Assembly (NCBI GenBank): GCA_010405405.1
Contig: MU004234.1
Span: 2,639,697 to 2,703,696 of the forward strand
Reading direction: 5' to 3'
Source of the DNA: Microthyrium microscopicum
Lineage: Eukaryota
Length of the DNA: 64,000 nucleotides
Part shown: positions 28,107 to 64,000 of the stretch, in pieces
Layout: each line of letters starts with the position of its first letter
Position numbering within the stretch: the stretch's first letter is position 1
Program-made: the position numbers and the translations under genes
The notes under the pieces: model-generated
Database searches by the model: none
What the model was told of the DNA's origin: nothing
What the model saw: only the letters and a program-made list of their open reading frames with translations

Positions 28107-28888
28107 GGTTTTAGGGGTGTGGCCTGGTTGCAGGCGAGCTGGTAGGTGTGCGGTCAAGCGAGAAGATGGGCGGTTTCTAGGGAGGCTGAAGTAAAGAATT
28201 CGAACAGGGAAAGAGAGGCACTGGGCAGTGTAGATCAAGGCTACTAGTTGTAGGTGTAAAGAGGTATTTTGGAGTAGTAGATGATAAGCAAAGAAAAAGG
28301 TTGAGGATTGGGGGAATTTTTGGACAAGCTGGAGGTGAGGTTGAAAAGTGGGGCTTGCTATCAGCTTGGGGCTACCCTTTTTAGGTACAGTACTAACTAA
28401 GGTTTGAGGTGCTGAAACGAGTGTAAAATCGATTAATCCGAATTCAATACTCGTAAATTGTAGAAGAATACAAATCAAGGAACGGTGACCTTCGAAGTAA
28501 TACTGACGCAGGATACCAGCAAATCATTTCGTCTCTTCATTGCTAACAAGACCTCAGCCCTACAGTGCCATTGCTTCTTCAAACAAGATAGGGGCTATCG
28601 AAATGAGAGACAACATTGAACGCTGGAAAGACATCGAAGAATAGTATCCAATGGCAAGCATATCGAAGGCACCTGAATGGTCAATTGTTTCATTATCAGA
28701 CAATTCTCGAACAGCCTTCTTATAAGGCATAACACATACACAAACAGCATTTGTAAACAACGCTTCTAAACAATCCTTACCATCCCAGTACTAAAGCCGC
28801 TTCTAAAGGTATCAAGTTTATCATAACGGAATCAACAGTACGAATCCAACAATCATGGCAGTCCACAGCCATGGGAAACCAGCAATCA

Positions 28889-35220: not shown

Positions 35221-36550
35221 TAAGAATACTTCCTAGACTTAGAATTTATAATCTATTGCTAGTTTATTATTTAGCTTATAGAGAACTAAGAGATTTTATC
35301 TAGCTAGTTCTTTAGAGAGGCTACTTAATAATAGCCTCTAGTATATACTTTCCTTATAGCATCTAGATAGGCTATTCCTTAAAGACCTTACTTTTTAAGA
35401 AGCTAGCTTATAAGGTTTTAAAAACGCTACTAGATTTCTTATTAAAAGATAACCTATATAAGCTAAAACCTTTCTTAAGATTAGAAACAATTTATTAATC
35501 GTTTTATTTCTTTTTATTAGTAATGCTATACTAGGTTAGTTACTCCTATAGGCTATAAAGTAGAGGCATATACCTAAATCCCTACTTATTTTATTATAAA
35601 TAGTAATAAAACTCCTTATATATATAAAACTATACCTAGCTATATCTATTACTTAGTAAGATTAAACAATATGTCTTATACTATTTCTAAAAGCAAACGA
35701 AAGAAATAATTAATAATAGTATATTTAGGAGCCTTTACTAATAAGAAGATAGTTATAAAACTATTAATTATATTCTATAGATTACCTACTAAATATTACG
35801 ATTAAAATAAAGTTATTAAGGGATTTCTTTATAATAAACGCGTTATTATAAAGTTTAATAAAACTACCTAAATAAATTTATTCCTAATTATTCTATAGAT
35901 TAAAGATTAATAGGTTCCTTATATAGATTCTAAGTAGTACTAACTTAAGTAAGAATAATATTACTAATAAGCTTAAGGTAAGGATACTCTTCTTTAAATT
36001 TATTTTTATTCTAACTTATTCTTTAGAACGTAGTATAGGCTTTAATTCTTAAAGTAATAAAGCTTATGCTTTTATTACTACTAAACTTATAAAGTTTAAT
36101 AGTAGTCCTACTAACTAAATTTACTTATTAATATAGTCTATACCTTCTTAGCTAACGTTAAAGGTTATTATTAACTCTATAGTATTTTATATAACTAAAG
36201 AAGTTAAGGCTTACTATTACGCATATAGTATTATTCTTATAGTTATTACCCTTAGACTAATAGCTAAGATTTAACCTTTAGATATTAGCATTAACTAAGT
36301 TATTAAGAAGTACCTTTAGGAATATTAAGACAAAATTACTTTTAAAGCGTATCTAAATAAAGATTTTTATAATCTTATTATAAGCAAAAAATGTATTATC
36401 TTAACTAAAATAGTTACTTACGCGTAGGAAAAGGCTTATACTTAGTAAACTTATTAAAAATATAATATTATAAAGTATTCTTTTACTTATACTAGAATTA
36501 ATATTACTCTAAATAGCTTAGAAGATTATCTTATATTAGTAAAAGGAATA
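35221..36550 (+). pseudogene. RIP-destroyed pogo/DDE_1 transposase (recognisable core: CENP-B-type HTH plus DD35D catalytic domain)
   Basis: Reversing C>T/G>A changes by eye gives FS.GWL.RF.KRY.ISY.K.T..SQNLP (~35390-35475), NSDETP (D at 35605), YDERV.VKFNETAW.N (~35830-35877), VIIDS..FH (D at 36173), VI.PGLTAKIQPLD (D at 36281) and SF..TG....DGSEDHLI.VKG (~36478-36547). A 49-nt GTAAGG..CTAAC..TTAG intron at 35978-36026 restores the frame. Confidence 0.85.
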
Positions 36551-39390: not shown

Positions 39391-39482
39391 ATCTAAGTAG
39401 AACTAAACTACTTTAAACTATTTAAGTAGAACTAAACTACTTTAAACTATCTAAGTAGAACTAAACTACTTTAAACTATTTA
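39391..39482 (+). repeat. 29-bp tandem repeat (ATCTAAGTAGAACTAAACTACTTTAAACT), three-plus copies running into the gap
   Basis: Units at 39391-39419, 39420-39448 and 39449-39477, plus a partial fourth unit cut off by Ns. Confidence 0.92.
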
Positions 39483-40047
39483 NNNNNNNNNNNNNNNNNN
39501 NNNNNNNNNNNNNNNNNNNNNNNNNNNNNNNNNNNNNNNNNNNNNNNNNNNNNNNNNNNNNNNNNNNNNNNNNNNNNNNNNNNNNNNNNNNNNNNNNNNN
39601 NNNNNNNNNNNNNNNNNNNNNNNNNNNNNNNNNNNNNNNNNNNNNNNNNNNNNNNNNNNNNNNNNNNNNNNNNNNNNNNNNNNNNNNNNNNNNNNNNNNN
39701 NNNNNNNNNNNNNNNNNNNNNNNNNNNNNNNNNNNNNNNNNNNNNNNNNNNNNNNNNNNNNNNNNNNNNNNNNNNNNNNNNNNNNNNNNNNNNNNNNNNN
39801 NNNNNNNNNNNNNNNNNNNNNNNNNNNNNNNNNNNNNNNNNNNNNNNNNNNNNNNNNNNNNNNNNNNNNNNNNNNNNNNNNNNNNNNNNNNNNNNNNNNN
39901 NNNNNNNNNNNNNNNNNNNNNNNNNNNNNNNNNNNNNNNNNNNNNNNNNNNNNNNNNNNNNNNNNNNNNNNNNNNNNNNNNNNNNNNNNNNNNNNNNNNN
40001 NNNNNNNNNNNNNNNNNNNNNNNNNNNNNNNNNNNNNNNNNNNNNNN
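39483..40047. other. Assembly gap (565 N)
   Basis: Run of N bases. Confidence 1.
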
Positions 40048-40310
40048 AAAATCTAACTTAATAATAAACTATTCTAAACTTAGGTCTAGTTTATAGTAAC
40101 TAGTCTAGCTAATGCTAGATCTAGTAGAAATATATCTAATCTTTAAAAATTTAAGACTTAGTAAATATATCTCTAAACTATAGCTAAGAATAGAATTTAC
40201 TTAAGAATTAACTAGAATTACTATAAGAATTAGTAGGCATAATTACTAATTTTATAGAATCTAAGCTAAATTCTTATCTTTTTTATAAAGTAGCTAAAAA
40301 TATAATCCCC

Positions 40311-41035
40311 TAAAGCCCTTATAGCTTAGGGATTAGCTATAGTGAAACACTAAAATATGCCCCTACTACTATATATTCTACTACAAAGTAGCTTAGGACT
40401 TAAGAGCCTTAAGTCTATAGAGCTAGACTAATCTAGGACTAGCTTTAAATCTAGCCCTTTACATCCAAAGGGCTAGATTATCCTATAGTAGCTACTTAAG
40501 CTATTTGAATCTATAGTATTTAACACGTAATATTAAGATCTAGGAATTACTAGATCTTAATATTGTGATTACGTACCATGTCACGTGATAGTCACGTGCT
40601 AGATTACGTAATCTAGCCCTTTACGTTTAAAGGGCTAGATTATCCCACAGTAGCTACTTGAGCTATTTAAATCTATAGTATTTAATACGTAATATTAAGA
40701 TCTAGGAATTACTAGATCTTAATATTGTAATTACGTACTAGATTACGTGCTAGATTACGTTATCTAACCCTTTATATTTTTAAAGAGCTAGATTATCTTA
40801 TAGTAGCTAAAAATAACGTATTTTTAGATAGTAGCTATTTTAACTACTAATAGCTAATATTAGCTATTAGTAGCTAATATTATAACTAATATTAGGGGGG
40901 CGCCCCTAATCCTCTTTATTAAATAGTTAAAAATACTATTTTTTAAAGCCCTCATAGCTTAGGAATTAGCTGTAGCGAAATACCAAAATGTGCCCCTACC
41001 ACTACATATTCTACCACGAACTAGCTTAGGATTTA
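40311..41035. repeat. Subterminal repeat domain: 92-bp direct repeats flanking ~151-162-bp tandem hairpin-containing units
   Basis: Direct repeats at 40311-40402 and 40944-41035. Tandem units start at 40448, 40610 and 40761 (third partial); the first two each carry 13-bp and 15-bp stem inverted repeats. Confidence 0.88.
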
Positions 41036-43083: not shown

Positions 43084-45872
43084 ATGAATCGACATGGAGG
43101 ACCTCAGCCGGATGAGCACGAGGGCGCGGCCCGGTCGACGGCTATTAGTCGAGATGGAGAAACAATACCACAATACACATCGGCCGAGACAGCAGAGCAT
43201 GACATTGCAATGTTCTCCAAGATGCACGCTTGGGATCCTAATGTCCCCAACGACAAGCTCAATGTGCTGGACGCGGCGGTGGAGAAGCATGACACTGACG
43301 CCGAAGAAGCTCTCGATCAAGAGCTAGAAGAAAACTCGCCATATCCTGAAGTTGTGGCAGCCGTGAGCAACACTGATGACACAACAATCGAAGGTGGCAC
43401 GTTTCGAGCCTGGTTCCTAGGACTCTTGTTCGTCACACTCGGCAGTGGTCTGAACATGCTCTTTTCGTTGAGACAACCCAGTATATCCATCGGTGCACTT
43501 GTAGCTCAGCTATGCGTGTATCCTATTGGTGTATTATGGGCTAAAGTGGTGCCCAGTAAAGAGTTTAGCGTTTTTGGTAAAAAGTTCAGTTTCAATCCTG
43601 GCCCGTTCAACAAGAAGGAGCACACCTTGATCGTTGTCATGGCTAATGTCACTTTCAATGGTGGATCCGGTAAGTGATACAACCGTCGTACAATTCAAGC
43701 TCTCGCTAATTAATGTCAGCTTACTCTACATTGACAATCGAGGCACAACGAGGTTTCTACGGACTTGACTGGGGATTTGGATTTGCAATTCTCTTTACTT
43801 TGGCGACACAAATGACAGGCCTGGGTCTTGCTGGTCTCTTCAGAAACTTTTTGGTGTACCCATCATCTATGATCTGGCCCTCGACATTGCCAAATTGCGC
43901 TTTGTTCAATACCCTGCATGATGGCAAGACGGCTATGGACCCGGCTGATACGAATGGCTGGAGAATATCCAGATTCAAATTCTTCACCTGTAAGTGGACC
44001 ATGGTCCGAGCCTATGACATTGCTAACATGAACAGATGTTTTGGTTGGCGGATTCTTTTGGTACTGGTTCCCTGGCTTTATCTGGCAAGGATTGAGTGTA
44101 TTTGCTTGGGTGACTTGGATCAAACCAAACAATGTTATTGTTAATCAAATCTTCGGTGGTACCAGCGGATTCAGCTATGGCGCGCCATTCACGATCTTTA
44201 CTTTGGATTGGACAACGATCAACGGTTATATTGGAAGTCCACTGGTAGTTCCATGGCACGCAATCGCAAATACCAGTAAGACAGAGCTCCTGTGGGTTGA
44301 AACATATCACGTACTAACGTATGCTAGTGATCGGCCTTGTTATTTTCACATGGGTTCTTGCAACTGGCATTAACTATAGTGGAAAGTGGTATTCTGACTA
44401 TCTTCCCGTCTCAGACTCCAACAGGTCCGTAGTGGTCTTACTATACCAAGAGACTTTGCTAACAGCTGTAGTTACGATAACATGGGCCACCGCTATAATG
44501 TCACTAGGATTTTGAAGCCAGACTGGACACTGGATCCAGTCAAGTACAAGACATATTCACCAATCTTCTTATCGACGACATTTGCCCTGCAGTATGGCCT
44601 AAGTTTTGCGTCCATTGTCGCGGTTGTCACCCACACCGCCGCATTCCATGGCAAAGAGATCTGGCAACGATTCCGAAATGTTCGAGCTGAACCCAAAGAT
44701 ATCCATATGAAGCTGATGCAGTCGTACCCTGAGGTACCGCAATGGTGGTTCATCACCATGTTCGTTATCATGCTCGCAATTGGACTGGCAACTGTTCTGC
44801 ATTACCCTCTCCAACTACCATGGTGGGCTTTCTTCGTCTCCATTTTAATGGCCGCCTTCTTCATGGTGCCCATTGGCATGATCCAAGCTATTACTGTAAG
44901 TCAAAGCCGACAATGAATACTGACTGTAGACTAACTCGAGTAGAATATCCCAATTGGTCTCAACGTCATCACCGAATTCGTTGTTGCTTACATGCTTCCT
45001 GGCCGTCCCATGGCCATGATGGCTTTCAAGACTCTTGGTTATATCACTATGGCGCAAGGCATAACGTACGCCCAGGATCAAAAGATGGCAATGTACATGA
45101 AAGTCAAACCGAGGACCATTTTTTGGGGTCAGCTTTGGGCTTCAGTTCTCAGTTCTTTCGTTCAAGTTGGCGTTTTGCTCTGGGCATTCACTAACATCGA
45201 GGGTATCTGCACCAAAGACCAGCCCAACAAGTTCACATGCCCCAACGGCCGAGTATTCTTCAATGCCAGCATCGTATGGGGTGTCATTGGACCAGGAAGA
45301 GTAAGTCCCATCATCTTCAGTCGTCTTTGGAGTTAAGAAGCTAATTTCTTGTAGATGTTCGGTCCTGGTAGTATCTATGAATCACTCCAATGGTTCTGGA
45401 TGATCGGTGCCCTTTGCCCCATCATCATCTGGGTCGTCGCCCGTAAATTCCCCCGCGGACCATGGCGCTATCTTCATTTCCCAATTATCTTCGGTGGTAC
45501 TGGTCAAATTCCTCCGTAAGCTCCACCTACCTCCCAGCCGTCCCCAAAAGTATCATTACTAACGAAACCTACAGTGCTGTACCCATGAACTACCTCATGT
45601 GGGGCATCATCGGCTATATTTTCAACAAGCACATCCGCTCGCGCGCACGTGGCTGGTGGTCCAACTACAACTACATTCTCTCCGCAGCGCTCGATACTGG
45701 TCTAGCTCTGTGCACAATCGTCATTTTCTGCACGCTCACTATGACCAAGACTGAGCCGCCTAGCTGGTGGGGCAATAACGTCGTGAGCACGACGCTGGAT
45801 TCTCAGGGAACGGCGATTCGTAAGGTGCTGCCCGATGGCGAGAAGTTTGGACCCCCGGTCGGGTCTTGGTAG
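43084..45872 (+). CDS. Oligopeptide transporter (OPT family, Isp4/Opt-like), about 7 introns
   Basis: Signature ENSPYPEVVAAVSNTDD, plus TFRAWFLG, FNPGPFNKKEHTLIVVMAN, YPSSMIWP, DIHMKLMQSYPEVPQWW, GLNVITEF, FTCPNGRVFFNASIVWG and YNYILSAALDTG, across GT-AG-separated exons. Confidence 0.95.
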
Positions 45873-46510
45873 TTGGGTGCGGTTGAGATAGTAATTTGTG
45901 TAGTAATTTGAGCTTAATTGAGATGTAGCGAAGCTTGTAATCATTCAATACCCTTTACTCAAGCTGACTTTGCTCGTGCCTTACGCTGTGATATCAGAAG
46001 AATCTAGAAACATTGCTCATGCTGAAGATCAACCTTGAGTGACTATGCTGTTGTGTCTGTGGCAAGTTATAGCAAGGGTAAGAAAATGAGTAATGGAGCA
46101 AGATATATCATGCAACAAGATCTAAAGGTCTTGTCAAGGTCAGAAAACAAAGATAGTCGTTCTCAATATCATCGTTGGTTCCAATGAAGCGGCACAATGG
46201 ACGTATAAGCTTGATTGTCCAATATGATACGAATTGAGCCTTCAAAATCTTCATGTCCGCTTTTCCGCTGATATCCCTAGGTGAGTTGTTTTTACCATAT
46301 CAACATGGTTATCTTTCTCCTTGAAGGATCTTTCTCATGGCCTTGGCTCCGTATTGAGCACCCGCAAGTCAACAAGTATCATCGCTATTCATCACACGGA
46401 CCCGAACAAATGAGTCAGCTAGTGATCTTCCGTGTCCTCTTCCATCAAGATTTCTTCTGTGGTATGGCCCTGCTCGTTACTCTTTTCCGCAGTATCTTTT
46501 TGCGTCATTC

Positions 46511-47088
46511 TCATTCCATAGTGTCGTCTTGATCTGTCTCGTCAAGTCGCTCCTGCATGTTATCTGGGTCCTGATTTTGAAATTCCTCCAGGAGATTCTT
46601 CCCGCGGATGGTAACAAACAAGTCAATCAACTTCTGGCACTTCTGCGTAAACTCTTCCTGAACTGGTCGGCTACGAAGTTGCTGCATTTTGGTGCAATTG
46701 AGGCAGATTTGGAGAATGGAGAAAGCTTGCAGGAATTTGGTCTTCATCTTCTGGTATGTATCGTCTACGTCCTGAAGAAATTCCGTGATCTTTCTGATGG
46801 ACTCTTGTGTCTCCGCTAGAAGCTTTGAATTAGAGCGGCCTATCGTGGTCTGAAAAGAGTTAGTCCTGGCTGATTGATAATTGCTGACAGAAGCGGCCTT
46901 ACAACTCTCTGCTTGAATGTCTCTAAGAACCTCAATGCAGCTCCAGTTGATTCTGAGTCTGACATCATCTCAGATATTGGCCCTCGGGGCTTGATGAACT
47001 CGTCTATGTCCGAAAGGAACTTGCTATCCGCGCTCAGCAGTTGGAGAGCCGCAAGGATCTTTCGACATTCGTGATGTTCGCTGGCCAT
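46511..47088 (-). CDS. Orphan family A, paralogue A1: ~174-aa predicted helical protein, 2 exons
   Basis: Exons 47088-46903 and 46849-46511 with a phase-0 intron (GTAAGG..ACTAAC..TTCAG). Alignable by eye with A2. Confidence 0.7.
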
Positions 47089-47567
47089 TGCTGCGCCGTG
47101 CTTCAATTGTCTGTACTTGTGGTATGGGATTGAATTTCAGGATGCTGAAGGAGTGCTTGTCGTTCTGTAAAGGCGTTGCGGTAGATAACGTTAAAGCTAT
47201 GGGAAGAGTGGAATTTGAGGGAAGCGAGAGAGCTGTCTAGAGTTTTGTGGTCAGAATTGAATTGTCAGTGCTAGTGCGTTGCCTAATGGTACCCGCTTCA
47301 ATGTTGTGATTGAGGCAATGACTGGAGAATTCCGAGGTAGTTACAGTACTCTACGCTTTGAGGTTGGTAAATATGTAGTTGATAGAATTAGGCAAGAATG
47401 AAAATGGGAAAGCAAATGGCAAGAGCGTCTAGTACTCCTGCCAGGTGATCCAGTCTCTCGCTTCTATCTCAAATTTCATCATATCAGCCGGCCTGATATC
47501 AAACTTCACCTAATATGCTGAACGCACAATATCAAAATGTCAAGTTTGGCCCGCTCTGCTGAGCAGG

Positions 47568-48136
47568 CTAATCTTCCATCCTGTTCTGTTCTATTCTGCT
47601 TTCTAGATTCTCGAGCGCATCTTGTAACTCCGGTTTCTGCAGCTCTTCTTGAATGTTTTCTCCACGAAAGCTGGTAAAAAGCTCGGTCATTTGTTGACAC
47701 TTCTCTGTATACTCATCTTGAATGCACTGACTGCGCATACGTTGCAGGTCAGGATTCTCAGCAGATTCTTGTATTGTATGGAACATGCTCAGGAAGATGC
47801 CCTTAAAGGTCTTGTATTCGCTCTCCACCGAAGTCATCATTTCGGTCATCTTTGAAATGTCTTCTTTCTCTGTCTGGGACTGTTCAAGTTAGTCACTTTT
47901 CGTGAGAACCATCCAATGTGTAGGGTTTGTGGACGCACCAGAGCTGAAATATTCCGGTCCAAAAGTCGGAGCATGGCCTCTGCGCTCGCGAAAGTGTCTT
48001 TAGACATGGCAATTGCATCCATCGCGGGCCTCATGCGCTTGAGGGATTCGTCCAATTGGCAAAGAACTCGATGATCGAGACTTAGTTGTCGAAGGACGGC
48101 AGCGATTCGCCGGCATTCCTGTATTTCCCTCGCCAT
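47568..48136 (-). CDS. Orphan family A, paralogue A2: ~169-aa predicted helical protein, 2 exons
   Basis: Exons 48136-47939 and 47879-47568 with a phase-0 intron (GTGCGT..ACTAAC..AACAG). Shares MAxExxECRxIxAxLxxLSxD and RSxxxQxExTxKCQxxxxLFxxxRGxNxxEE with A1. Confidence 0.72.
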
Positions 48137-48574
48137 GAGTACTCCAGGCTTGAACTAAGGTGGTTAAGAAAGTCTGTGTCGGTTGCGTGTTTGTTCTTCG
48201 GTCGGGTGTCAAGTCTTGAGGAGCGGCTAGTGGTTGGTAAGGGCGCGTTGTCAGATATATTTGATGGTCAAAGAATGATGTTAGAGTGAGAGAGGATGTT
48301 AGAATGAGAGAGTACTATAGCAATTAAGCGTGTAGGAAGAGTTTGTGATAGAAGACATTTGAGTTCTCGGTCACCGGTGTATTGGTCTTTCAGTCTATTG
48401 CTCCATGGTACTTGCCTAATATTGAAGCAGCGAGTGGAGCAATTATATGGCCGAAATGGGCAATAACCAAGTAAGAATGTATTATGGCAGGAACTATCCA
48501 AGCAACAACAAACAACACTGTCCAAGATAAATAACAAAAAAGCTCATTCAGTTATTTGATGTCCTTCCTCCAAC

Positions 48575-49792
48575 TCATTCTTGAAGTCTCCACTCGCCCT
48601 GACGACTGATAAGTGTGCCCAGGTCGAGCTCATCGCTGCTTGAATCAATTGTCTCTGCGTCAACCAAGACTCGCCTGCTTGTCTTCAGACTCGGGAGTTC
48701 GTCCCATGCTGGCATTACCTCAAACTCGAACAAAGCGAAATGAGTTATCGTACCGCATAAGTGATTTACGCCTTTCGTGACCCATTCTGCTGCACAATGG
48801 AGCTTTGCCAGGTAGTGATCAGTGAGTTCCAAGTCCTCGATGATCTTTTCAGTCAAAGCGTTGGCCTCTTCCAAGAGCCGCTGAAGTGAATTAGTATCGT
48901 ACTTTCCAAAGATAGGCATAGTTCTTACCTTGTCCCATAGAGCACGAGACTGATTATTGCCCGTGTTTGATCTGTGACGCTTCTGGGAACTAGATGTACT
49001 CGATTGTGCTTGAAGGGCTCGCTTATTTCCTTTGCTAATTTGCCTGAGCTCTTCCCAGGATTTTGATACGATGGTCTGCTTTGCCTTCTTCTCGTTGAGT
49101 GTGCGCTCAAATCCGTCCAGAAGGTTTCGACTCATTCGAGCGCATCGCTCGCGAAGCTCGGGACAATCCATTCGCGCAGCTAGGTTACAAAGGTTACACA
49201 TCTGGTCAACGACTTTAGCTTCCAATTGCTGTAACCGTATTTCATTTCCCACTCCTTAGTTGTATATTTCAGAAGAGGTTCCATATTAGCTTTCAGAGTG
49301 GGATTTGCAATACCGACCTTGTAGTGTTAGTGACTATCGCACTGTTTATACTATTCATCATTGAAACTCACGACACTTTTCTTGAGAACGTCAACCTCGT
49401 CATCTACTGCGGGTATCCCGGCTGGATCCATGTAGTACTCTTTGTCCATCTCTTTGCTGTAAGTCTTGCTCTGTCCGTCTGATCCCTTCAAAGTCACTTC
49501 GTCGCTCTTTATGAATCTGTTGGGATAAGACTGCTCGATGTGTAAACCAGCCATATTTGTCTTGGCAAGGAACTGTTGGAATAGCTGTAGGCTGGCTTGA
49601 ACGATGTCTCGATCCACATATTCTGAATCGGAAGTCTGTGTGGTAGTGAAGCTTGCCTCGTCACTAGACTCTGAAGATGATACAGAAAGGAAGATGTCTT
49701 CGTCAAGAAAGATGACCTTAACATTGGAAGCCTGAGTTCGGAGCTATCAGCCGCTCATAAATTGAAAAGATTCATCAAGAAGGCCTCACCAT
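48575..49792 (-). CDS. Orphan multi-exon hypothetical protein ('C'); exon structure uncertain (possible 4-nt microexon, or pseudogene)
   Basis: ATG-only exon 49792-49790, intron 49789-49732, exon 49731-49372, intron 49371-49318, putative GTCG exon 49317-49314, intron 49313-49255, then ORF to 48575 with a probable in-frame 48-nt intron at 48928-48881. Confidence 0.5.
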
Positions 49793-50496
49793 TACTGTGG
49801 ATGGCTTTCGATATAGGCTGAAGCCCTCTGAAGCTGTGAATACCGAACAGGGGGATGTTCTGGCTCAATTCTGACATAGGCCGAGTTAGTACTCAATTAA
49901 GTTAATTGTGACACGCGGCCAGGGTCAAAAAGCGTTGAACTTACAAATGTAATTGTGATCATGGATGTAGTGGAGATGAAGAAGGATGCAGATGATCAAG
50001 TTTAGCGAAAGAAATATACGAAATCTTCACCAGACAGTGCAAATTCTTCTGCACAACAGATGACTCTCAGTCTTTGATGTACATCCTAGCGTAGAAAGAA
50101 GGCAGTCAAAATCTCTGATCATTTGATTATGAACTCATCAGAGCGGAACGAGAAAGGAGACGACTGCCAGATAGGGTATGTGACTGCAGTGGAATCTTTG
50201 GTCTCTATTGCTCACCACGGTAAGAGAAACACTTTCAACGAAGGCCTTGACGATAATGAAGATTTACTAAAGTAATAGCAGAGGAGCGATGATAGGTAAG
50301 TGATTAACTGAAGGTTATCTTCCTGACATTCACCAGTTTTGCTTGGCCATAAACATAATGAGGCGTACCGCAGGTTTTAGCTATTAATATTGCGAGCATA
50401 TCTACTCCGAAATGTGATACAAAGAGTGATTTAACAACTACAAGTACTCGACGGTCAATTATCTTCCTACATCGTTCGGATATCCATCCATAGTCA

Positions 50497-51695
50497 TCAC
50501 ATCATCTCAGTATCACCGTCGTCCGCTGCAATTGCATCGTCCGTTCCTGCTATAGGACCTGGGAGCGTCCACCCGTTTAGCTCCGAAGCAAGCCACTTGT
50601 CAATGGTCTTTTCGATAGCATGGGCATAACCGACCAGCTTGCAGATGATATCTTTCCAAACATCCCACAATTTTGGCCGGCTGAAAGCTGCGATGCTAAG
50701 TACTTCTACTGGATCAACTGGGACACCGGTATTGTAAGGGGAACTTCCCTTGGAGATCTTGGACATCTTGATATACAGGTATCTGAAGAACTCGGTCTGT
50801 TCTGGCGTTTCATTCCCATGTAATGATGGCCAGATACCATTGGTCTGAAAGCGTTCTTTGATGTAATGAACACAATCAAACACTTCCCGAGCATGACACT
50901 GCTCTACAACCAGAGTCGCAGCCATTGTGTTAGTGTCCCTTTTGACAGTTTGAAGCGCATATTCCACCGCTTGAAGCTCTTTTGAAGAAATTGGGCGGGA
51001 TATTCCTGACTCTGCATTGCTTAGGCTCAATTGTGAGAAGGATATGTCAATCTCGTCTTGGGATCCGAGTGGAGGAAATTGTGACATTTCAAGCTCAAAG
51101 AATTCTGCGGCGGAGGAGATCTGCTGTTGTGCCTCGTTGATATAGTTTTGCAGCTCCATCATGAGGAGCTCGTTGGGGTGAGCCGAAGAGTCAGAGTAGT
51201 AAAGCTCGACGATCGCTCCATATTCCAGGTCGTCCTGTAGGGCAGTTATAGTGCCAGGTGCTTCCTCTTCACTTGAGATCACTGGAACATTGTAATACTG
51301 GTTGAGTACCTTGGGCAAAGGATGGAGCAAGTGAGCGATTGCTTCGAAAAGAAACTCCTGCTGGGCCGCGACTAAGTGCACAACTTTCCAGTGCTCCGTA
51401 GATCGCTTCTGACGTTGGCCGGCCACTGGGCTGGGCTTCGTTGACCTTTTCTGTCGGTACTGCCGAGCAACATGTCGACTCGTCGAATTCTTCCCGCAAT
51501 CTTGCTGAATTAGCTGAGACTTGGATGGTCGAGTATGGATTGGTAGAGTCATCTGAGCCAACTCTTTGTTTTGGCGCACTTTGCGCTGGCGGATAGGCAA
51601 ACTTGTAAGCTCTCTATGATATAGTTAGTATCCCAATATACTGGAGAATAAAGGGGAACTCACGCGAAATGCGATGGCGTCTGCTTTGGTGCCAT
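50497..51695 (-). CDS. Orphan family B, paralogue B1, ~382 aa, 2 exons
   Basis: Exons 51695-51664 and 51613-50497. MAPKQTPSHFAELTSLPIRQRK ... VLSIAAFSRPKLWDVWKD...AIEKTIDKWLA. Confidence 0.82.
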
Positions 51696-52473
51696 AGTGA
51701 CGACGGGGCAGATATATTGTTGTGTGATATAGCTGATGTGATGTTGATATAACAGTGGTTCAGAGCAATTATGGCTGAAGTCTGCGTGGTGGAGCCAAAA
51801 GAGCCCGGTTGACTGAAATTTTCCCAGTTTCTTGGACGCGGAGTAGCGGGATTGTAGTGTGGGAAGAGTAGGTTCTGGACAACAGGAACCTGGGGACGCT
51901 CGGAAGTAAAGGGAGATTCTGAACGACCGGAGTGACCCCCAGCGTCGACTTTAGGTTGTGTTGACTTCACTTCTTTGCACCTCGAATTTGTCGTTGGAAT
52001 AGATCATTCCCGAGATGCCAGTGACCGTCAGAGTAGATAGGCTTGCGTGATCCGGGTATAACTCCTCTACATAGCAACTATGGACAGAATGTCAAGAGAT
52101 TGGATGGGTTTAAGTAATGCCATCAGTGGTATTGGACACACCTTCCGCCTCGAGAAATCTGATTTTTACAATTAAGCTATATCGCTCCAAAACGATCGAA
52201 CTTTTAGCTCTCATCTGCCAATTGTGGGCTAAATGATATGATTCAAGGTATCCTATTCGAGACGAGATGAGCCTTTCTAGGTATAGGAATCTCTCGTTTG
52301 TTAAGATTCTATTTAATGGTCTACTGTGTTGATCAACTCAGCTTAGATACAAACATGCCTGGCTACAAAGAAATACCGTTTCTCTCGCAAGCGACTCCTA
52401 GATTCAATTTTCTCAAACAAAGTAATTTTCTGGCCTGACCAGTATATAACTCCTTTTCAATCGCCCTTATGCC

Positions 52474-53529
52474 CTAGAGCGATGCGAGCCAGCTATCGAC
52501 AAGTTTTTCGACCGCTGCGGCATGATCAATAAGCTTCGTCGCCGTCTCTCGCCAAAGCCTCCACAATTTCGGACGGTTGAACGCCGCAACCGCCAGAAGC
52601 TCCAGAGAGCGAGCTCGAGGACCGCTGAAAGGAGAGTCCGCGTTGGATAGGTTGACATATATAAACTTCAATAGATCAGCCGCGAGCCTACTCTCTGTCT
52701 CATCCGGCGTTTCGTCATCCAGGGGTGCCGAGACTGCACTGTTATCGAACTGTTCTTCGATAGACAATGCGGAACGCAATGCTTCAAGTAGCTGGCACTT
52801 TTCAGCAGCCAATGTGGTGGAACTGACGACAATGTCCTTTTTCAGATCTCTTAGGGTATGTTCTACAGCCAGGCGCTCTTGCAAAGGCAATGGCTGGTAA
52901 ACCGTCTCGTTGACACTCAACTTATTGAAGATGATATGCAAATCATCCTCGCTTCCTGGAACCAGAAAAGGAAGGACTTGTGGAAGCTTAGTATACAACG
53001 TAGTAAGCTTGACTTGAAATGATTCTGCTGCGATGGGAATATGCTTTTCAGCTTTGGCAACACAGTCTGGCAAATTCTCCATGATACAACTACGAATTGA
53101 CGAGGAAGAACTTCGGGGCACTGTTGACAGCCCAAATAATGATCGCTCAACCCTGATCGCCTGGTTGTTTTGATAATGGTTCCACATGTCCGGTAAGGGG
53201 ACATGCATGTCAGCGATGGTTTCTAACAATATCTGCTGCTGAGCTGCCACAAAGGCCACGAATGATCCGTGGTCGGAACGTTTTGGTCGCTTTGGTATTG
53301 AGAGTCTAGTCGACTTCTTCGGCTTTTGGGTCTTCTTGATCATTCGTTCATCTTTTCGGGAGTGTGTTGGAAGAACCGACGGAGTTATCTCTTGTTGTTG
53401 CCGGGTCTTTCTCTGCCGGATCGGCAGGTTGGTGAGGTTTCTGTTTAGAATCAGCATTATAGTAAGACGGATTAACAAGAGGGTAATGAAGACTTACGCG
53501 AAAGGCTTTGGAGATTGTCGAGGCGCCAT
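52474..53529 (-). CDS. Orphan family B, paralogue B2, ~332 aa, 2 exons
   Basis: Exons 53529-53498 and 53440-52474. MAPRQSPKPFANLTNLPIRQRK ... LLAVAAFNRPKLWRLWRE...AVEKLVDSWLA. Confidence 0.82.
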
Positions 53530-54118
53530 TCTGGAGGAGTGCAATTGGCAAGCTCGAGATTGTAATTGTGCTAATAAAGTTGGAATAAAACAATGCAAGT
53601 ACGCGTGGAACGGGAAGGTTCGGCGCAACTGTCCTGAAAAGCTTAGATGTAGCGTTTGGGAGTGTGGTGATGGTAAGATTAATGTTTGAACAATCCAAAG
53701 GCGCATTGTATATATGGGGAGTCTTCGAACATCTAGAGTAAGTTCTTGCGCCTGCTATGGTGTCAAGTGACCGTGTCAAGTTCACTTTTACGCACCTCGA
53801 AGCGTGAGGTGAAAGATCGGATTCTTTAGGTGCCATCATACCTTGTAAGCCTAGATATCTCGTAGGTAAAATTTGGTAAGCAATGCATCTCTTCTGCAAT
53901 TTGATGATAGGAGGTCAAGAAAATAAGATAATGGGAGATTATAGAAACCAGGAATCAAGGGAATGACAAAGGATAATATAAGGAACCTGGGAAAATGAGA
54001 CATCTAGAACAACAGACTGGCCGCTCCATTGCAGCCAACAAAATGCTGTGTAATAGAGTTGAGTATCCTTTCTGAAAACCTCCTGTTCGAAAATTAGGCC
54101 CTTAGCAACCTACATCAT

Positions 54119-55471
54119 TCAGATGAAATCTTTCGACTCCCTCTGTGGAGTTTGTTTTATACCTATATCATATCTCTTGCCCAATTCATGCTTAGCGGTA
54201 TGCGTTTTCGAGCCCCAAAGCGATTGTCCTTTTGCCTCCAAAGCAAGCCATTGCCTGAACGACTTTTCCACAATAGCAGCCTTCTCATCAAGCTCAATAG
54301 TCATCTCTCCCCACCGCTTCCATAGTGCTGGCCGGCTAAAGGCCGCAAGCATGACCATGTCTTTTATGGGGAGAGGCGCACCTGGGCGATGAACTGCATG
54401 CAGCTGGGCCATCTTGGTGTTTACCCATCGTTCAAACCCAGCAAAGGCTCTAATGCTTATCTCTTCTGGGCTTTCAACCTTTAGAGGGATCCAACTATTG
54501 CTGAGCTTGAATCCCCATTGGAGGATCTGCATAGACTGCAAGACGTCTTCGACATTGCTTTTCTCCAGGTCCAGCTTTTGGTGTACTAGTCGAGCTTCTG
54601 TATACATCTTCGCCAGAACCGGATTCGTAGCGAGACGATCGTGAAAAGCCATTTCCTCTGTTACAATCGTCATCCAATTCATGAAGCTTATATCCGAGAG
54701 AATATTAGTGACTTCATTCTCCTCTTTGTCAACGAACGATAAGACATTCGGTAGTGTATTTGAGATTCTTGTAAGCGTAGATCGGAGAGATCCTCGCGCA
54801 GTAAGTAAGCGTTTATTCGCTGAGCTAATCTGGTTCTGGAAATCTTCCTTGAAGCGATCATGCTTTGAAGTGTTAGAGTCCATATGATATCGTTGGAGAA
54901 TATCTTGAAGCAGTCAGTAAATTCATCTTGTTATCTTTTGCTGACACATACTGTCCAAGTCTTCCTCAAATGGTACTGCCGCGAGGTTTGGGTATAGCGC
55001 ACAAATTTCGTTCAACGACGCGAGCATCTCTTTAGTGTTCTGCGAAATGATCTTGCGCTGTATACCTGCCATTGCTATATAAGCCTCATGGTCTCGAAGG
55101 CTCTTAGGAGCTGATAGATCTGACTCGACAATCGAGATGTTGGTTGGATGACTCGAACTTTTGCCATAGCGTAAACGAAAAACCATGCTCTTGCTTTGGT
55201 GAGTTGAACGAGGCGGCTTCTCTGAGAGACTTGCATGATGATCCGGCCCTTTGCCTTGGCGTAATGGTAGAGCTATGCTCTTGTTCTGATGATTAGGAAC
55301 GGCCTTCTTCTCGTGACCTCGGAAAGGCAGCGTCATTTCCTTGTGTTGATCAATTTTGCGCTGTCGGATAGGAAGATTCATGAGGTTGCTGTGCTTAAAT
55401 TAGCATAGCATATGGATAGGCCCTGGTGTTACTACTCACGTGAACGGTGTTTCTGTCTTCTTGACTGCCAT
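54119..55471 (-). CDS. Orphan family B, paralogue B3, ~417 aa, 3 exons
   Basis: Exons 55471-55440, 55388-54952 and 54903-54119 total 1254 nt in frame. MAVKKTETPFTNLMNLPIRQRK ... MVMLAAFSRPALWKRWGE...IVEKSFRQWLA. Confidence 0.82.
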
Positions 55472-55937
55472 GGTGATAAAACCACTGGGCTATCTCAAAA
55501 TAGGGGTTTGGTTTATGATGTTTGAAACGGAGAGAGCAGTAGAGGCGTGCGCAGAACCTGGGGATGCGATGAGCTGTAGCGCAGGAGTAGATAGGAGAAA
55601 GGTTGAGAGAACTGGGAGGCGTGTTAAGGTTAAGAGAAGCCTTCGAACTTGCGAAGTGACTAGTCTAGATGTTGACCTCTATACCATTTTCAGGCATGTG
55701 CACCTCAAAAGCTGCTAGATGAAGGCACCTACCAAATGCCAGTCACTTTGAGAACAGGAGCGCTTGGTAGTCTAGAATAGAGAATCTTGCCCACCAAATA
55801 AGAGTAGAAACTCTACTGCAGAGATCAGATCATGTCCTTCATGGCGTCGTGCATATATATACTAACTACAACGAACTTCGAACTTTGCAAGCTTCGATTC
55901 AGACCTGCCATCCTGTATTGATGGCTGAGTGAGCCCA

Positions 55938-57250
55938 TCATATATCTATATCCATGTTCTCGTCTTCCATCATGTCACCGTCACTGTTGTCTCTATTCTT
56001 AGAGATCGAGCGTCCTTTTGCCGTATGGGTAATCCACATGTCAAGAGCTTTCTCGACAACACAAGCCTGCTCAGATAGCTCTTTCGTTGAGTCAGCCCAG
56101 AGTTCCCAGAGTCGGAGCTGGCCATATGCTGCGATGGTAAGGAGTAGCATCGGATCAGCTGGGGAAGAATCGTCAAGCGTGAGTAGACAAGTGGCTTTCA
56201 ATGAGAGTGACTTCAGGATTTCGCTCTGAACTCTGCGCTTGGTTTGCTCGGGCTCTTCATCCCACAGAGGAACACGGATAGCGTTGGTTTCGAATTGTTG
56301 GCTGACCGATTTGACGGTCTGCAATATATTTTCCACTTTGATATGTTCCGAGCGAAACAACTGCGAAAACCAGCTGAACGAGATCTTCAATTGCTGTAGC
56401 TTTTGACGTAATTCGGGAGCGTCTGAAGGATCTGAAGTCGATGCCTCCGCTTCTGAGACCAGTGGTGCCGTGATTCCTTCCGTGAAGGCCATGCGTTGTA
56501 AAAACTCGTGAAGATTGTCTGCGTTGAGGGAAGCAGCAGTCTTTTTTTCTGTCAAGTCCAGGCTCTGGAAGTCCTTGAGCAGATCTTCTGTAGCATGAGT
56601 CTTCAGCAGCGGAATCTCTTGGTAAAGTGTTATGATATAGGCCTGCGCTAGCATTGCGTTGAACGCAACTCGCTTGGTTTGAGATTTGACAAACGTGTCC
56701 AGGTTGTTCTGTCGCTCGTGGGGAAGGGGCGATGTAGATCCAGCATAGAATTCATCCAAGATATCTGTTATTAGTCAGTGCATAGCTTGTAGGTTACTTT
56801 GGGGCAGCAAATACTTTGCTCGTATAAGGCGGTCTCTTCTCTACCAGCCATAGCTAAAGATAGCTTCTCCCCAGTGGTAAGCATAGAAACGCTGTTATAG
56901 TGCTCGAAGACGCAGCGCAAAGGGATAAGCATCTTGGCGACGGTCGCTGATACAACCCTATGTTGAATATCTACCATGGTCATCACTGGCCATGGCCCCC
57001 GTCGTGGTGGACCTCGTCGGATCAGGGGAAGTCGTGATGGCTTGGAACCGTTGTCTACGATAGACAGGAATTTGCCCTTGCTGATTACGCGAGTCTTATT
57101 GGCTCCTGAATTGAACGAGGCACCCATTTTGCTGAGACACCCAGAGTTGGGCTTGCGGTCTTGGGGGGCTGTTTTTTGGCTAACGCGAAGTTAGCATGCT
57201 GCTAGATAACCAGCACGAGGCAATACCACGACTTACTTTGGAGGGAGCAT
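55938..57250 (-). CDS. Orphan family B, paralogue B4 (most divergent), ~401 aa, 3 exons
   Basis: Exons 57250-57237, 57179-56815 and 56764-55938 total 1206 nt in frame. PLWDEEPEQT ... LLTIAAYGQLRLWELWAD...VVEKALDMWI; same intron phases as B3. Confidence 0.78.
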
Positions 57251-58401
57251 AGGTAGATGCGTGAGAGAAGGAGTAATCTGATGCGCGTATACCCAAAGCG
57301 GGAGATTAATGTTGAGGGCGTATGTTGCGTGAAGTTGACCAAGATAGCGAATGCTGTAGTGGGTAAGGAGTGGATTGCGTGTTGTGAGATGTTGGAAGAG
57401 CTTTGAACTTGGGAAGAAGTCCTTCGAGTCTGTTGCAGTGACTTTGCAGGTGCCGAATCGTTCACTCCCCTGATGGCCACCTCAAAGCACCCAGCCTAGG
57501 ACTCTCCCGCCTATCAGTCACTGCAAGCCCAGGAGGCATCAGGCTGCCTTTCTGGTCTGGAAATTTCACCCGAACTTCTAGTGGCCAGATTTTGTATCTA
57601 CTTCATGAATCTCGGCCAGATGGAGAAACGATGACTGCATATCAGTGGAAGGATACGACAGCTACATACCTAATTTCCATCTATCGGAGGTCCACTTGCA
57701 CGAAGCAGAGGCACCGAATCGCTCGATATATGACGTTCTAAGCTAAGAAAAGGACATAGTACTTCCTGAGTAGCCATAATTAACGCTGCATATGGACACG
57801 AAGAAGGATTGAAATGTGGGTTCAAGGTGAAGTTGCGAAGCTGGGTTTGTTTACTTTTGTACACTCAGCCTATGAGGAGTCACTAGGTAGGTATATAGAG
57901 ACAATAGAGGGACACTTCATTTTAAAGCGATGAGATTTGGAAAAATTATCCAATAGGATAAAAACAGAGTATACATGTCTGCTGTATGTGATGGTGGTAC
58001 TCTGATAGTAGTGAGGGGAGCAAGCCCCTTATTTTGCCATCCTGCTGGTTTGTTTACGCCTTTAAGGGGTGGCAATCAAGACAGCTTGCGCAACTTCCAC
58101 CGATTGCTTGACCAGCGCGCATAAAAGCAGGCAGTCTTTACCAGGGAAGGAGATACAGCATATATCATCGAAGAACAAGAAAATATGTTAAGAAGAATTG
58201 TAAATTGATGGGTGTGATGTTGGGTGCAAAGTGGGTGCAAAGTGGATCCAAGAACAATGGCTTTTTGCTCATCCGCGTCTAGCCGAAAGGGGCTTTTTGG
58301 AGAGACGTCAGATGGTCCAACTCCAACAACAGTTCTCTCCCCAGATCAACTCTCATTGTCTTTACCACTTTCGGATATCATGACAATAAATCAATAGTAC
58401 A

Positions 58402-59840
58402 ATGTCCTTACGCCCAGCCACCAAGCGTTTTCTCCCGTCTCCCAGAATCCTCACCACATCCCTCAACACCACCCACCACTCCCCTAGACACCACAAACAA
58501 AGCATACGATGGAGTTCAGTATCCCAAGCACCAGGCTCAGACCGGTACGAAGCTTCTCCCTCTCAAACTCACCAATCTAACGTCTTCCCAGAGTCCACTT
58601 CCCCGGCGCAGTAAACTCCAAATTCACACCCACCCTCTCCTTCACAAACCCCTCCACCCTCCCCGCAATGCCCACCTACCGCACCATCGACGCCGACGGT
58701 CTCCTAATCGACTCCTCCCGCCCACCAATATCCGTACCCGATGATATAGTCTTGAAGATGTACACCGACATGTTAACAGTCTCCATCCTCGACCCTATAA
58801 TGTACCAAGCGCAACGCCAAGGCCGCCTATCCTTCTATATGGTCTCCTCCGGCGAAGAAGGCATCGCCGTCGGTTCCGCGTCAGCCCTCACAGCATCCGA
58901 CGTCGTCTTTGCACAATACCGTGAAGCTGGAGTATTTCAGGCGCGGGGCTTTAGTTTGGATGATTTTATGAATCAACTTTTCGCGAATCGCCTGGACGTT
59001 GGTAGGGGGCGGAATATGCCGGTACATTATGGGAGTAAGAGTTTAAATATGCATACTATCAGTTCCCCATTGGCGACGCAGATTCCGCAGGCGGCGGGCG
59101 CGGCGTATGCGCTCAAGTTGCAGCATTTGCAGAATCCGGAGAGTGTGGAGCGCGCGTGCGTGGCGTGTTATTTTGGCGAGGGCGCAGCGTCGGAGGGGGA
59201 TTTTCATGCGGCGTTGAACATGGCGGCGACGAGAGCTTGTCCGGTGGTTTTTGTGTGTAGGAATAATGGGTATGCGATTAGTACGCCGACGCTCGAGCAG
59301 TATCGGGGTGATGGGATTGCGAGTCGTGGGGTTGGGTATGGCATCCATACGATAAGAGTGGATGGGAACGATGTGTTTGCTGTGCGCGAGGTTATGCAGA
59401 GGGCAAGAGAGTTGGCGCTTGAAGGCGATATGCAGCCTGTGCTGGTGGAGGCGATGAGTTATCGCGTGAGTCATCATAGTACGAGCGATGATAGTAGCAA
59501 GTATCGGCCGAGTGGGGAAGTTGAGGCATGGAAGAGGAGGGATAATCCAATTACGAGGCTGAGGAAGTGGATGGAGAATAAGGGTCTGTGGAGCGCGGAG
59601 AAGGAGGAGCAGGCGCAGAAGGAGATTAAGAATGCTGTTATGGCGGCTTTTAATAAAGCGGAAAAGGAGAAGAGGCCAGAGTTGAGGGCGATGTTTGAGG
59701 ATGTTTATGAGGAGGTTACTGAAGAGCAAGAGGAACAGATTGAGCAGTTGAAGGATGTCATTCGACGGTATCCTGGTGAATATGATGTGGAGCAGTTTGA
59801 GGGTGGGCTTGAAGGACTAGATAAAGCTCGATCACGATAG
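58402..59840 (+). CDS. Branched-chain 2-oxo acid (2-oxoisovalerate) dehydrogenase E1 alpha subunit, mitochondrial, ~463 aa
   Basis: Exons 58402-58544 and 58592-59840. AQRQGRLSFYM, TPP motif GEGAASEGDFH...CRNNGYAIST, phosphorylation loop YRVSHHSTSDDS; presequence-like N-terminus. Confidence 0.95.
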
Positions 59841-61778: not shown

Positions 61779-64000
61779 CTAGCGACCTCGAGCCATTGCC
61801 AGAACTTCGAATCCAAGGTCATTCAGAGTCCGCTGGTCATCTAAACCCCAAGATATTGTTGATCCTTCTGCAATAAGAGCTTTCAATCGCTCTACGATGC
61901 TCGTAGGTGTAGCAATAACCCGCTGGCTACCCTCAGCCTGATCAACCGCACCAGTTTCATCAGGTAGTACCGTCTCATCAGCCATAGGCGCCACCGCCAT
62001 AGCCTTGCCGTCCATAATCTTCTGCCGCTTCTGAGGAGAACTATCCTGTGAAGCCGACTTTCGAGTCAATCGCTCCTTTGACGAACTATCATACGAACTT
62101 TCCCGACTAGCCAACAGCTTGGCAGAGGGTGTTCGCAGACGAGGCTGCTGTGTATCCAATTGTTGTTCCTCAGAGTCCTGAATTAACGATAGCTCGATAG
62201 ATGGCACTGAGGCTCCTGTCTCCGGTATGATGGTTTTGGGAACAACGGCTTCTGGGACTGCATTTGTAACAGGTGGTTCTGGTGTAATATCAGACATGCT
62301 ATGTCGGTTTGATGGCTGGCGTTTTCGTGGACGGCCGGGACCGCGCTTCGTCTGAGTCGATTGGCTTGCTGATGTAGAAGACGTGAGGGATTGCTGCGAT
62401 CTGTCTGTCCCAGTTGTAGCCGAGCCTTCGAAAGATGAGTTGATTTGTGTTTCTGGTGGACCATTTGGAAAGGCGTCATCGAGTGTAGTGATAGTTTTGA
62501 GGAGGACTTGTGTAGGCAGAGAGTTGTGTAATTCCGGTATAGTTGTTTGTCGAGTGGCAACAGGTCCGTTGATTACTTCAACAACAACTGGCCGCTGTGG
62601 AGAGGATTGGCTTGCTAATAATTCTGCCACAAGTTGCGAACTAGGCAAATCATCAGAAGACAGAGCGGATGGACTCTGGTTGCCATTGTTGCCCATCTCG
62701 ATATCCAGAGGCTCTGCTTCAGCAAGACTTGGTACAACGGTAGCCTTGTCTTCAATCTCATTGACAGCAGAAGTCATCTCGACATCTTGGATATCCTCAG
62801 GGACTGTGGGCTGCTGCTGAAGTGAACCGGATGCAATTGACTGAAACAAATCCGACTCGTCATCCAATTCCGAGCCTATCGACAGTGGCACTTCCTTCTC
62901 CGCTGCTTTTTCTGGTGGACTCGAAGGTATTTGTAGACCTCGTGGACTCTTCGTTGTGCTGGAGCTGCGATGTTGTCGACGAGTCACACTGGCTGCAATC
63001 GGCGAACTTGGTACATCATCATCCACCCCATCATGCACCGGTCCAATTTCAGGTGTAGCTGGATGTAGCATTTCCCCGTCATCAGATTCCGAATCGCTAC
63101 TAACAACGACAACATCCGAGTTGATCACCAGCGGTGTCGAAGGTTGAATGTCTCTGAACATGGCCTCGGAATCCGCCTTTTGGCGCTCAGCAACTTCTTT
63201 TTGGTGCTCGGTCAGATTCTGAGTCTCATCGGCGCGCATAGGTGAGGAGGATGGAATCGGCTCAAATTGTATCTGCGAGTCTTCATGGCGAAATTTCCGG
63301 CGAGGAGTTAAATTTGGCTGCGGTGAGACCATCTTCTTTGTTGTTTGCTTGGGCATTGGCGATAGGCGATTGTGATTCCGAGCTGGCCCCAAGGGCCGAA
63401 CTGCGATGGGGCTTTGGGAGTGCTGCGAACCATAGTCGCTAAAAGTTATCAGCGTCCGTGGAGTCGTAGCGGTTTCCGTTTCCTCCGTGATAAAAGCAGC
63501 TGGCAAGTGAACATCACTAATGGTTCGCAAGCGTTTGGCAGCCTTGATCAACGACGACGGGAAGCTTATATTGAGGTTACGTGTTGATGAGAGTTCGACG
63601 ATATCGTTCCAGAGCAGAACAGACACGTTAGCAATTGACTCGCGTGGACTGTTCAGGCCGGCGAGTACAAGACGCTCCACACTCTCAAGCCAATCTGGTG
63701 AGGGGCTCGTAGCCTGAAAATCTGTACGGTATTTCTCCGTAATATCCTGCCAGAGCGATAGTATCGAGCCCAGAACGCGACTGCCGTCAGGTAGCTTACT
63801 AGCATCTTTGATATTGCGCTTTTCATCGAGGAGCAGACACGCAAATCCATCTTGAGCAAATCGTACTAGAGCGTGGAACGACCGAGCAGAACGCGCAATA
63901 TGGCGTCGAATCGCCTCAAGAAATTTCGAGTACGCGACAACCATGTCGCTGGAGAGGCCTATGTGTGCATAACCATAGAGTAATGCGGCATCAACCAGGC
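61779..64000 (-). CDS. RIF1: Rif1 telomere/replication-timing regulator, 3' part (frame stays open to the window edge)
   Basis: End of a HEAT-like region (LVLAGLNSPRESIANVSVLLWN), the motif RRKFRHEDSQIQFEPIPSSSP...QNLTEHQKEVAERQK that I recognise from Pezizomycotina Rif1, a long disordered region, and a short C-terminal helical domain. Confidence 0.8.
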   Translation of the reverse strand, partial: LVDAALLYGYAHIGLSSDMVVAYSKFLEAIRRHIARSARSFHALVRFAQDGFACLLLDEKRNIKDASKLPDGSRVLGSILSLWQDITEKYRTDFQATSPSPDWLESVERLVLAGLNSPRESIANVSVLLWNDIVELSSTRNLNISFPSSLIKAAKRLRTISDVHLPAAFITEETETATTPRTLITFSDYGSQHSQSPIAVRPLGPARNHNRLSPMPKQTTKKMVSPQPNLTPRRKFRHEDSQIQFEPIPSSSPMRADETQNLTEHQKEVAERQKADSEAMFRDIQPSTPLVINSDVVVVSSDSESDDGEMLHPATPEIGPVHDGVDDDVPSSPIAASVTRRQHRSSSTTKSPRGLQIPSSPPEKAAEKEVPLSIGSELDDESDLFQSIASGSLQQQPTVPEDIQDVEMTSAVNEIEDKATVVPSLAEAEPLDIEMGNNGNQSPSALSSDDLPSSQLVAELLASQSSPQRPVVVEVINGPVATRQTTIPELHNSLPTQVLLKTITTLDDAFPNGPPETQINSSFEGSATTGTDRSQQSLTSSTSASQSTQTKRGPGRPRKRQPSNRHSMSDITPEPPVTNAVPEAVVPKTIIPETGASVPSIELSLIQDSEEQQLDTQQPRLRTPSAKLLASRESSYDSSSKERLTRKSASQDSSPQKRQKIMDGKAMAVAPMADETVLPDETGAVDQAEGSQRVIATPTSIVERLKALIAEGSTISWGLDDQRTLNDLGFEVLAMARGR

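Follow-up and report, generated by a model that had tools for sequence, protein, structure and literature searches.

Three apparently lineage-restricted gene families between OPT and BCKDH E1-alpha genes in Microthyrium microscopicum, one with a retained promoter module

What are the seven neighbouring genes that separate an OPT transporter gene from a BCKDH E1-alpha gene in the dothideomycete fungus Microthyrium microscopicum, and do they form one unit? The locus lies within a stretch of 64,000 nucleotides (contig MU004234.1, positions 2,639,697 to 2,703,696, of assembly GCA_010405405.1) that we analysed as a whole and refer to as the window. All seven genes are on the minus strand, contain introns and follow one another in the transcription order B4-B3-B2-B1-C-A2-A1, so that the island they form runs from 57250, the first base of the B4 ATG, to 46511, where the A1 stop codon ends. 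A preliminary description of this DNA had reported seven co-oriented genes here, and all are present where it placed them (Table 1). We read them as seven genuine native genes belonging to three lineage-restricted families, among which the B quartet arose by old tandem duplication and has a common promoter module, and we put the probability of this reading at roughly 0.7.

The family structure is apparent at the protein level. Over all pairs, the B proteins are alignable by blastp with 22-33% identity (E 1e-11 to 5e-52): B1 and B2 are 33% identical (E ~1e-51), B3 is 23-26% identical to these two (E 1e-21 to 1e-26), and B4 is 22-28% identical to B1-B3 (E 1e-11 to 1e-19). The two A proteins are paralogues as well, with 32% identity over 174 columns (E 1.7e-22). 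Such paralogy is far beyond chance and bears out the earlier claim of two tandemly expanded families. The protein of the remaining gene, C, matches neither A nor B, the best blastp E value being 0.12, and profile comparison with hhalign gives a probability of at most 0.2% for A-B, A-C and B-C. Judged by sequence comparison, the island families are therefore three and mutually unrelated, and what had been put as 'at least two families' can be sharpened to the tandem families A and B plus a singleton. No internal repeat was found within B (hhalign probability 0.1%), and tblastn detected no additional copy of an island gene within the window.

An unrooted maximum-likelihood tree of the B proteins groups B1 with B2 and B3 with B4 (77% bootstrap), on branches of 0.5-1.5 substitutions per site. 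All four genes have a phase-2 intron near the start, which follows codon 4 in B4 and codon 11 in the other three, and a second intron is common to B3 and B4 and absent from B1 and B2. Because tree, intron pattern and the physical order B4-B3-B2-B1 agree, the quartet would be the product of serial tandem duplication, the duplicated unit comprising a gene and its promoter. Synonymous divergence (dS, substitutions per synonymous site) is saturated in all seven paralogue pairs, being at least 2.8 or undefined, with a nonsynonymous divergence (dN) of 0.54-0.87. The B duplications thus appear to be old, and dN/dS is uninformative for these pairs. With dS saturated and no orthologue to compare with, the rapid evolution proposed in the preliminary description is not supported.

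Despite this saturation, the sequences upstream of the B genes can be aligned with one another and have 66 invariant columns. Dinucleotide shuffles gave 33.3 +/- 6.7, and on each of four measures all 200 of them fell short of the real alignment. The core of the aligned region, TTYGAGGTG, occurs seven times in the window where 1.18 occurrences are expected, a number that none of 100 shuffles reached, and four of the seven occurrences precede the four B genes in sense orientation, at a distance of 228-291 nt from the start codon. Further blocks are collinear in all four copies, the module is ~170-190 nt long, and the longest direct repeat of the island (29 nt, 79% identity, B1 against B2) is this promoter element. 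Retention of the module while synonymous sites became saturated argues for selection on a common cis-element, and since the module has remained collinear, B1-B4 would most likely be driven by the same transcription factor. We regard the module as the new observation at this locus, and as an experimental handle on the regulator. The other three matches to the core, at 16640, 28403 and 60837, are probably due to chance, as about one is expected; that at 28403 is inside a coding open reading frame (ORF) for DUF7923.

The module is a feature of the B genes. Of its six blocks, five are missing upstream of A1, A2 and C alike; the remaining one, CRCTACA, is present a single time, out of register, 10 nt ahead of the C start. 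In a k-mer scan, no 7- to 10-mer proved to be widely common among the seven upstream regions; pairwise alignment of the A1 and A2 upstream regions revealed no conserved block, and no repeat was reported between the two. Co-regulation, which had been proposed for the island as a whole, is thus supported for the B quartet with its collinear module and not for a seven-gene unit, given that A1, A2 and C lack it. The products of A1 and A2 (acidic, ~170 aa) and of C (338 aa) are best seen as separate small hydrophilic proteins, tied to B by adjacency and orientation only. An 18-nt unit is present in two copies (94% match) at 48277-48312, in the upstream region of A2.

Table 1. Genes, promoter modules and transcribed leader of the island (positions in the window)
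Feature	Position	Strand	Description
A1	46511-46849 + 46903-47088	minus	174 aa, 2 exons, 53-nt intron
A2	47568-47879 + 47939-48136	minus	169 aa, 2 exons, 59-nt intron
C	48575-49962 (exons 49945-49962, ~49369-49731, ~49237-49314, 48929-49180, 48575-48880)	minus	338 aa, five exons, annotated model P0003; internal splicing putative
B1	50497-51613 + 51664-51695	minus	382 aa, 2 exons, model identical to P0001
B1 promoter module	51853-52022	minus	core TTCGAGGTG at 51978-51986, 283-291 nt upstream of ATG
B2	52474-53440 + 53498-53529	minus	332 aa, 2 exons, model identical to P0002
B2 promoter module	53648-53840	minus	core TTCGAGGTG at 53793-53801, 264-272 nt upstream of ATG
B3	54119-55471	minus	417 aa, 3 exons, length equal to P0004
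B3 promoter module	55575-55743	minus	core TTTGAGGTG at 55701-55709, 230-238 nt upstream of ATG
B4 coding region	55938-57250	minus	401 aa, 3 exons, length equal to P0005
B4 promoter module	57355-57522	minus	core TTTGAGGTG at 57478-57486, 228-236 nt upstream of ATG
Transcribed B4 leader	57251-58216	minus	X1 contig spanning 55838-58216

Are these genes expressed? The RNA evidence consists of contigs from one public run, X1 (its label, 'RNA?', is a guess), on positions 45800-58600. Joints in these contigs match three predicted introns exactly: one at 53440/53498 skips 57 nt and corresponds to the B2 intron 53441-53497, while a single 2272-nt contig contains joints at 56764/56815 and 57179/57237, corresponding to the B4 introns 56765-56814 and 57180-57236. 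The skipped segments read CT..AC on the plus strand, corresponding to GT..AG in the orientation of the genes. Splicing at predicted sites suggests that the contigs represent processed RNA. Contig pieces also lie on B3 (54513-54821) and on the 3' part of A1 (46450-46732), and at least four of the seven genes (A1, B2, B3 and B4) are accordingly transcribed. The contigs cover none of 47081-52204, where A2, C and B1 are located, and this carries no weight on the expression of those genes.

The B4 contig continues for 966 nt upstream of the start codon; the 14 ATGs in this stretch all open short upstream ORFs. It ends ~130 nt from a divergent BCKDH E1-alpha contig starting at 58345. The transcribed stretch upstream of B4 may be either a long isoform of the leader or an RNA of its own, since overlapping transcripts are not kept apart in a de Bruijn contig; for the interval 57251-58345, a bidirectional promoter or an upstream non-coding RNA is possible. 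At B2, the module core lies ~195 nt further upstream than the point (53599) where the RNA contig has its 5' end. A perfect 11-nt tandem repeat (2.3 copies) occupies 58221-58245, between the B4 and E1-alpha contigs.

Reading frames are intact in all seven genes, the six claimed in the preliminary description having to be corrected upwards by one. The six A and B models, built from minus-strand stop-to-stop ORFs and GT..AG introns, translate without internal stop, and their eight introns, 48-59 nt long, are all GT..AG and carry a motif resembling a branch site close to the 3' end. Read in frame, the genes resemble the conserved genes of the window in synonymous codon usage (correlation r 0.50, against 0.08 and 0.32 out of frame). 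Composition is normal, as previously stated, with a GC content of 0.46 in the island that is close to the flanking values of 0.48 and 0.50.

What kind of proteins do the genes encode? The island proteins are hydrophilic on average (grand average of hydropathy, GRAVY, -0.34 to -0.66), and none of the seven contains a transmembrane-like segment (maximum 19-residue Kyte-Doolittle mean 0.73-1.15), in line with the first reading of the sequence. As for the N-terminal signal peptide that marks secreted effector families, the same hydropathy heuristic shows the tail at the start of the B proteins to be basic, hydrophilic and not signal-like (maximum 8-residue mean 0.56-0.91), whereas A1, an acidic (isoelectric point 5.0) and hydrophilic protein, has a hydrophobic stretch (8-residue mean 2.48) inside a predicted helix. 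The first 95 residues of the B proteins carry a net charge of +12 to +15, with ~19% lysine plus arginine, and are followed by an acidic or neutral body; a motif around LPIRQRK in this N-terminal part is conserved in B1-B3. Towards the other end is an amphipathic C-terminal helix in which A296, A297, L303, W304, W307, L314, A318, E322, K323 and W328 are invariant, at spacings of 3, 4 and 7.

An AF2 model of B2 based on the four-sequence alignment is all-alpha, with residues 1-72 disordered. Foldseek found no match to this model in the PDB at E<=1e-3, and VIA-align returned generic up-down helical bundles only, no row standing out; the best row, the designed maquette 6z0c_A (Z 13.8, root-mean-square deviation 3.5 over 175 residues, 7% identity), was flagged as ordinary, Z values under about 13 possibly reflecting a mere common arrangement in helical bundles. 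The low-confidence B2 model thus resembles a fold class represented in the PDB, not a family. The corresponding model of C, from a single sequence, was too poor for a structure search (predicted local distance difference test, pLDDT, 41.6), and co-folding of B2 (66-332) with C (150-338) scored 0.01 against a mark of 0.34, which has no weight either way.

From these features the B proteins would be soluble, elongated all-alpha bundles with a basic disordered tail, the bundle fold being tentative because confidence in the B2 model is low. The basic disordered N-terminus together with the all-alpha body is what suggests a nuclear role, and localisation to the nucleus is conceivable, if somewhat doubtful. 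On our reading, purifying selection has kept the hydrophobic helix-packing pattern in the B proteins and the collinear promoter module with its TTYGAGGTG core. The role of the proteins would be that of adaptors or regulators specific to the lineage, not of enzymes.

How far is the lineage restriction real? An HMMER profile of the four B proteins was compared exhaustively with 1,835,955,588 cluster representatives and gave five matches at E<=1e-3, of which four are B1-B4 themselves (E 1e-89 to 3e-109). The one other match, a repetitive 167-aa protein at E 3.1e-4, was regarded as spurious. A word-index search with B1 identified two proteins among 3646 candidates, both from M. microscopicum, and a word search with C recovered its own model, P0003, as the sole match among 300 candidates. 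A1 is probably missing from public annotation, since a word-index search with its exon 2 (5.8-billion-cluster collection, within 61-196 aa) produced no candidate and not even a self match. In metagenome scans, none of 328 pattern matches to the A alignment and none of 141 to C was confirmed.

Comparisons with described families gave a similar picture. None of 12 ORF pieces reached a curated Pfam cut-off, at E<=10 no Pfam family matched more than one B protein, and a relaxed Pfam scan of C and the A exons found nothing. Sequence searches of the PDB gave a best E of 0.4 or no match, and in the ESM Atlas the best feature scores for B1 and C (0.76 and 0.82) were below the lead level of 0.9, with structural template-modelling (TM) scores of at most 0.30. 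The earlier statement that the proteins match no described family therefore holds across Pfam, PDB, Foldseek, VIA-align and the ESM Atlas, none of which gave anything specific. The papers listed as naming M. microscopicum, as seen from their titles and the beginnings of their abstracts, are taxonomic, survey or unrelated, none of them concerning the island locus in those parts of the text, and a literature search on orphan, tandem or lineage-specific genes in Dothideomycetes yielded general parallels only.

The alternative that survives these results best, though we consider it unlikely, is that the island is an ordinary syntenic block of old fungal helical proteins that have diverged beyond recognition, owing to the isolation of the lineage and to the fast evolution of helical or disordered proteins. 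All database matches come from one species, the proteins are helical with long disordered tails in models of low confidence, and the long branches between paralogues show how fast signal decays. Yet a profile built from four sequences failed to find even a marginal fungal match among 1.84 billion representatives, and it would have to be the case that three unrelated families, all adjacent, are all orphan.

Our preferred reading, of native lineage-restricted families with a commonly regulated B quartet, also has several points to contend with. Nothing ties A or C functionally to B, and the searches that mark A and C as orphans were weaker than those made for B. The database matches suggest that only one genome of this order is represented, so 'restricted' could mean an old family diverged beyond recognition; as the matches come from one species, the label 'orphan' may in part be a consequence of the lineage being isolated. 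In B4, the TTYGAGGTG core is inside the transcribed leader, a poor fit to a simple upstream promoter position. Strings resembling bipartite nuclear localisation signals (NLS), identified with a regular expression, occur in B1 and B2 but in neither B3 nor B4, and C has them too. Finally, confidence in the B2 model is low (mean pLDDT 49.8; predicted TM score 0.39).

A second alternative takes the families for hydrophilic helical proteins that protect against stress, like LEA proteins or the CAHS proteins of tardigrades, tandemly expanded in a fly-speck fungus that lives on exposed leaf surfaces. The negative GRAVY values are as this would have it, as are the helical predictions, of low confidence, and the tandem expansion of lineage-restricted families. 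It is nonetheless very unlikely: conserved tryptophan, phenylalanine and leucine recur at heptad-like spacing, which suggests a packed core, the basic N-termini resemble an NLS, and no island protein gives the match to an LEA-type Pfam family that would be expected of an LEA protein or hydrophilin.

Still less probable is a conflict locus, in which A, B and C would interact as a meiotic driver, a toxin-antidote set or an allorecognition system. Orphan, clustered and co-oriented families in an ascomycete, with highly diverged paralogues, are compatible with such a locus without arguing for it. Spok, wtf and other fungal meiotic drivers are fast-diverging, lineage-restricted and sometimes multi-copy ascomycete genes; Spok is a large protein with catalytic (kinase-like or nuclease-like) domains, and wtf-type poison-antidote drivers are multi-pass membrane proteins. 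The island proteins, in contrast, are 169-417 aa long without any domain match, kinase and nuclease domains included, and have no transmembrane segment, and the copies are ancient and stand in one array, neither dispersed nor recently turning over. Nor do they resemble HET or NLR allorecognition proteins, as no island protein matches HET, NACHT or NB-ARC in Pfam at E<=10. No HET domain was found at E<=1e-5 among the 26 long ORFs scanned in the window, and the lack of the B promoter module in A and C speaks against one interacting set. An extended form of the idea, that the three orphan families make up one nuclear module private to a fungal order, for example a killer-and-antidote or self/non-self system with the diversified B paralogues as specificity subunits under one transcription factor and A and C as accessory components, is for us equally improbable. 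One further observation compatible with conflict comes from Neurospora, where lineage-specific clusters sit with HET-domain genes (PMC10684091).

That the frames are non-coding or decayed pseudogenes has nothing positive to recommend it beyond the putative middle exons of C and one weak donor site (GGTTAC) in model P0003, and is scarcely credible for any of the genes and already refuted where B2, B4 and the B family in general are concerned, given RNA contigs spliced exactly at predicted sites, protein-level paralogy that persists with all frames intact despite saturated dS, and four independent database models equal in length to ours, the two checked (B1 and B2) being identical.

The coexistence of intact paralogues with repeat-induced point mutation (RIP) had been seen as a tension. 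However, the paralogues are only 42-53% identical in DNA over aligned codons, far under the Neurospora threshold of at least 80% identity over at least 400 bp, as quoted in PMC3017866, and their present coexistence with RIP therefore needs no special explanation. The dinucleotide indices of the island (TpA/ApT 0.70; (CpA+TpG)/(ApC+GpT) 1.35) are like those of the rest of the window. An AT-rich block at 34300-41000 (GC 0.10-0.33 per kb) is RIP-like in composition, with corresponding indices of 1.70 and 0.18; it contains an assembly gap (N run 39483-40047), at the left edge of which is a ~30-nt AT-rich tandem unit.

Seen more broadly, the island reads as an ordinary, well documented example of a lineage-restricted gene cluster. 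The nearest described kind are the clustered lineage-specific genes of Neurospora (PMC10684091): in N. crassa such genes aggregate near telomeres and with HET-domain genes, and like those of the island they have no homologues outside the lineage and few or no domains, are aggregated and are transcribed. The island may differ from them in that no HET match accompanies it among the scanned ORFs of the window, and it adds clear tandem paralogy and a retained promoter module. Lineage-restricted gene clusters are common in fungal genomes, and without a phenotype the island is an example of them and not a surprise. What gives it interest is that the B family has no detectable relative in ~1.8 billion cluster representatives, yet is old, spliced, transcribed and constrained. 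Synonymous sites have been randomised while the promoter module and the helix packing persist, so that function becomes visible without an outgroup, and the defined cis-element in the B promoters can be used to find the regulator and the conditions of expression.

The surroundings of the island are as first described. On the OPT side, PF03169 is matched by four plus-strand ORFs between 42994 and 45872, and on the other side a plus-strand ORF at 58581-59840 matches E1_dh (PF00676, E 6e-91), as befits BCKDH E1-alpha. No terminal direct or inverted repeats of the kind that mark the edges of mobile elements border the island, no tRNA or Rfam family was found, and the only three tandem repeats detected are all short. 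ORFs of at least 110 aa were considered in the Pfam scan of the window, and 12 of the 26 scanned had a match at E<=1e-5. Long ORFs without a domain at this threshold (up to 1025 aa) lie at 2883-8489, 10889-13127, 16744-18759, 21661-24738 and 61779-63998; domain-less genes may therefore be common in this genome, which makes the island less unusual. On the minus strand at 26766-28523, two adjacent ORFs cover profile positions 2-94 and 116-185 of DUF7923, and the pair looks like one gene split by an intron.

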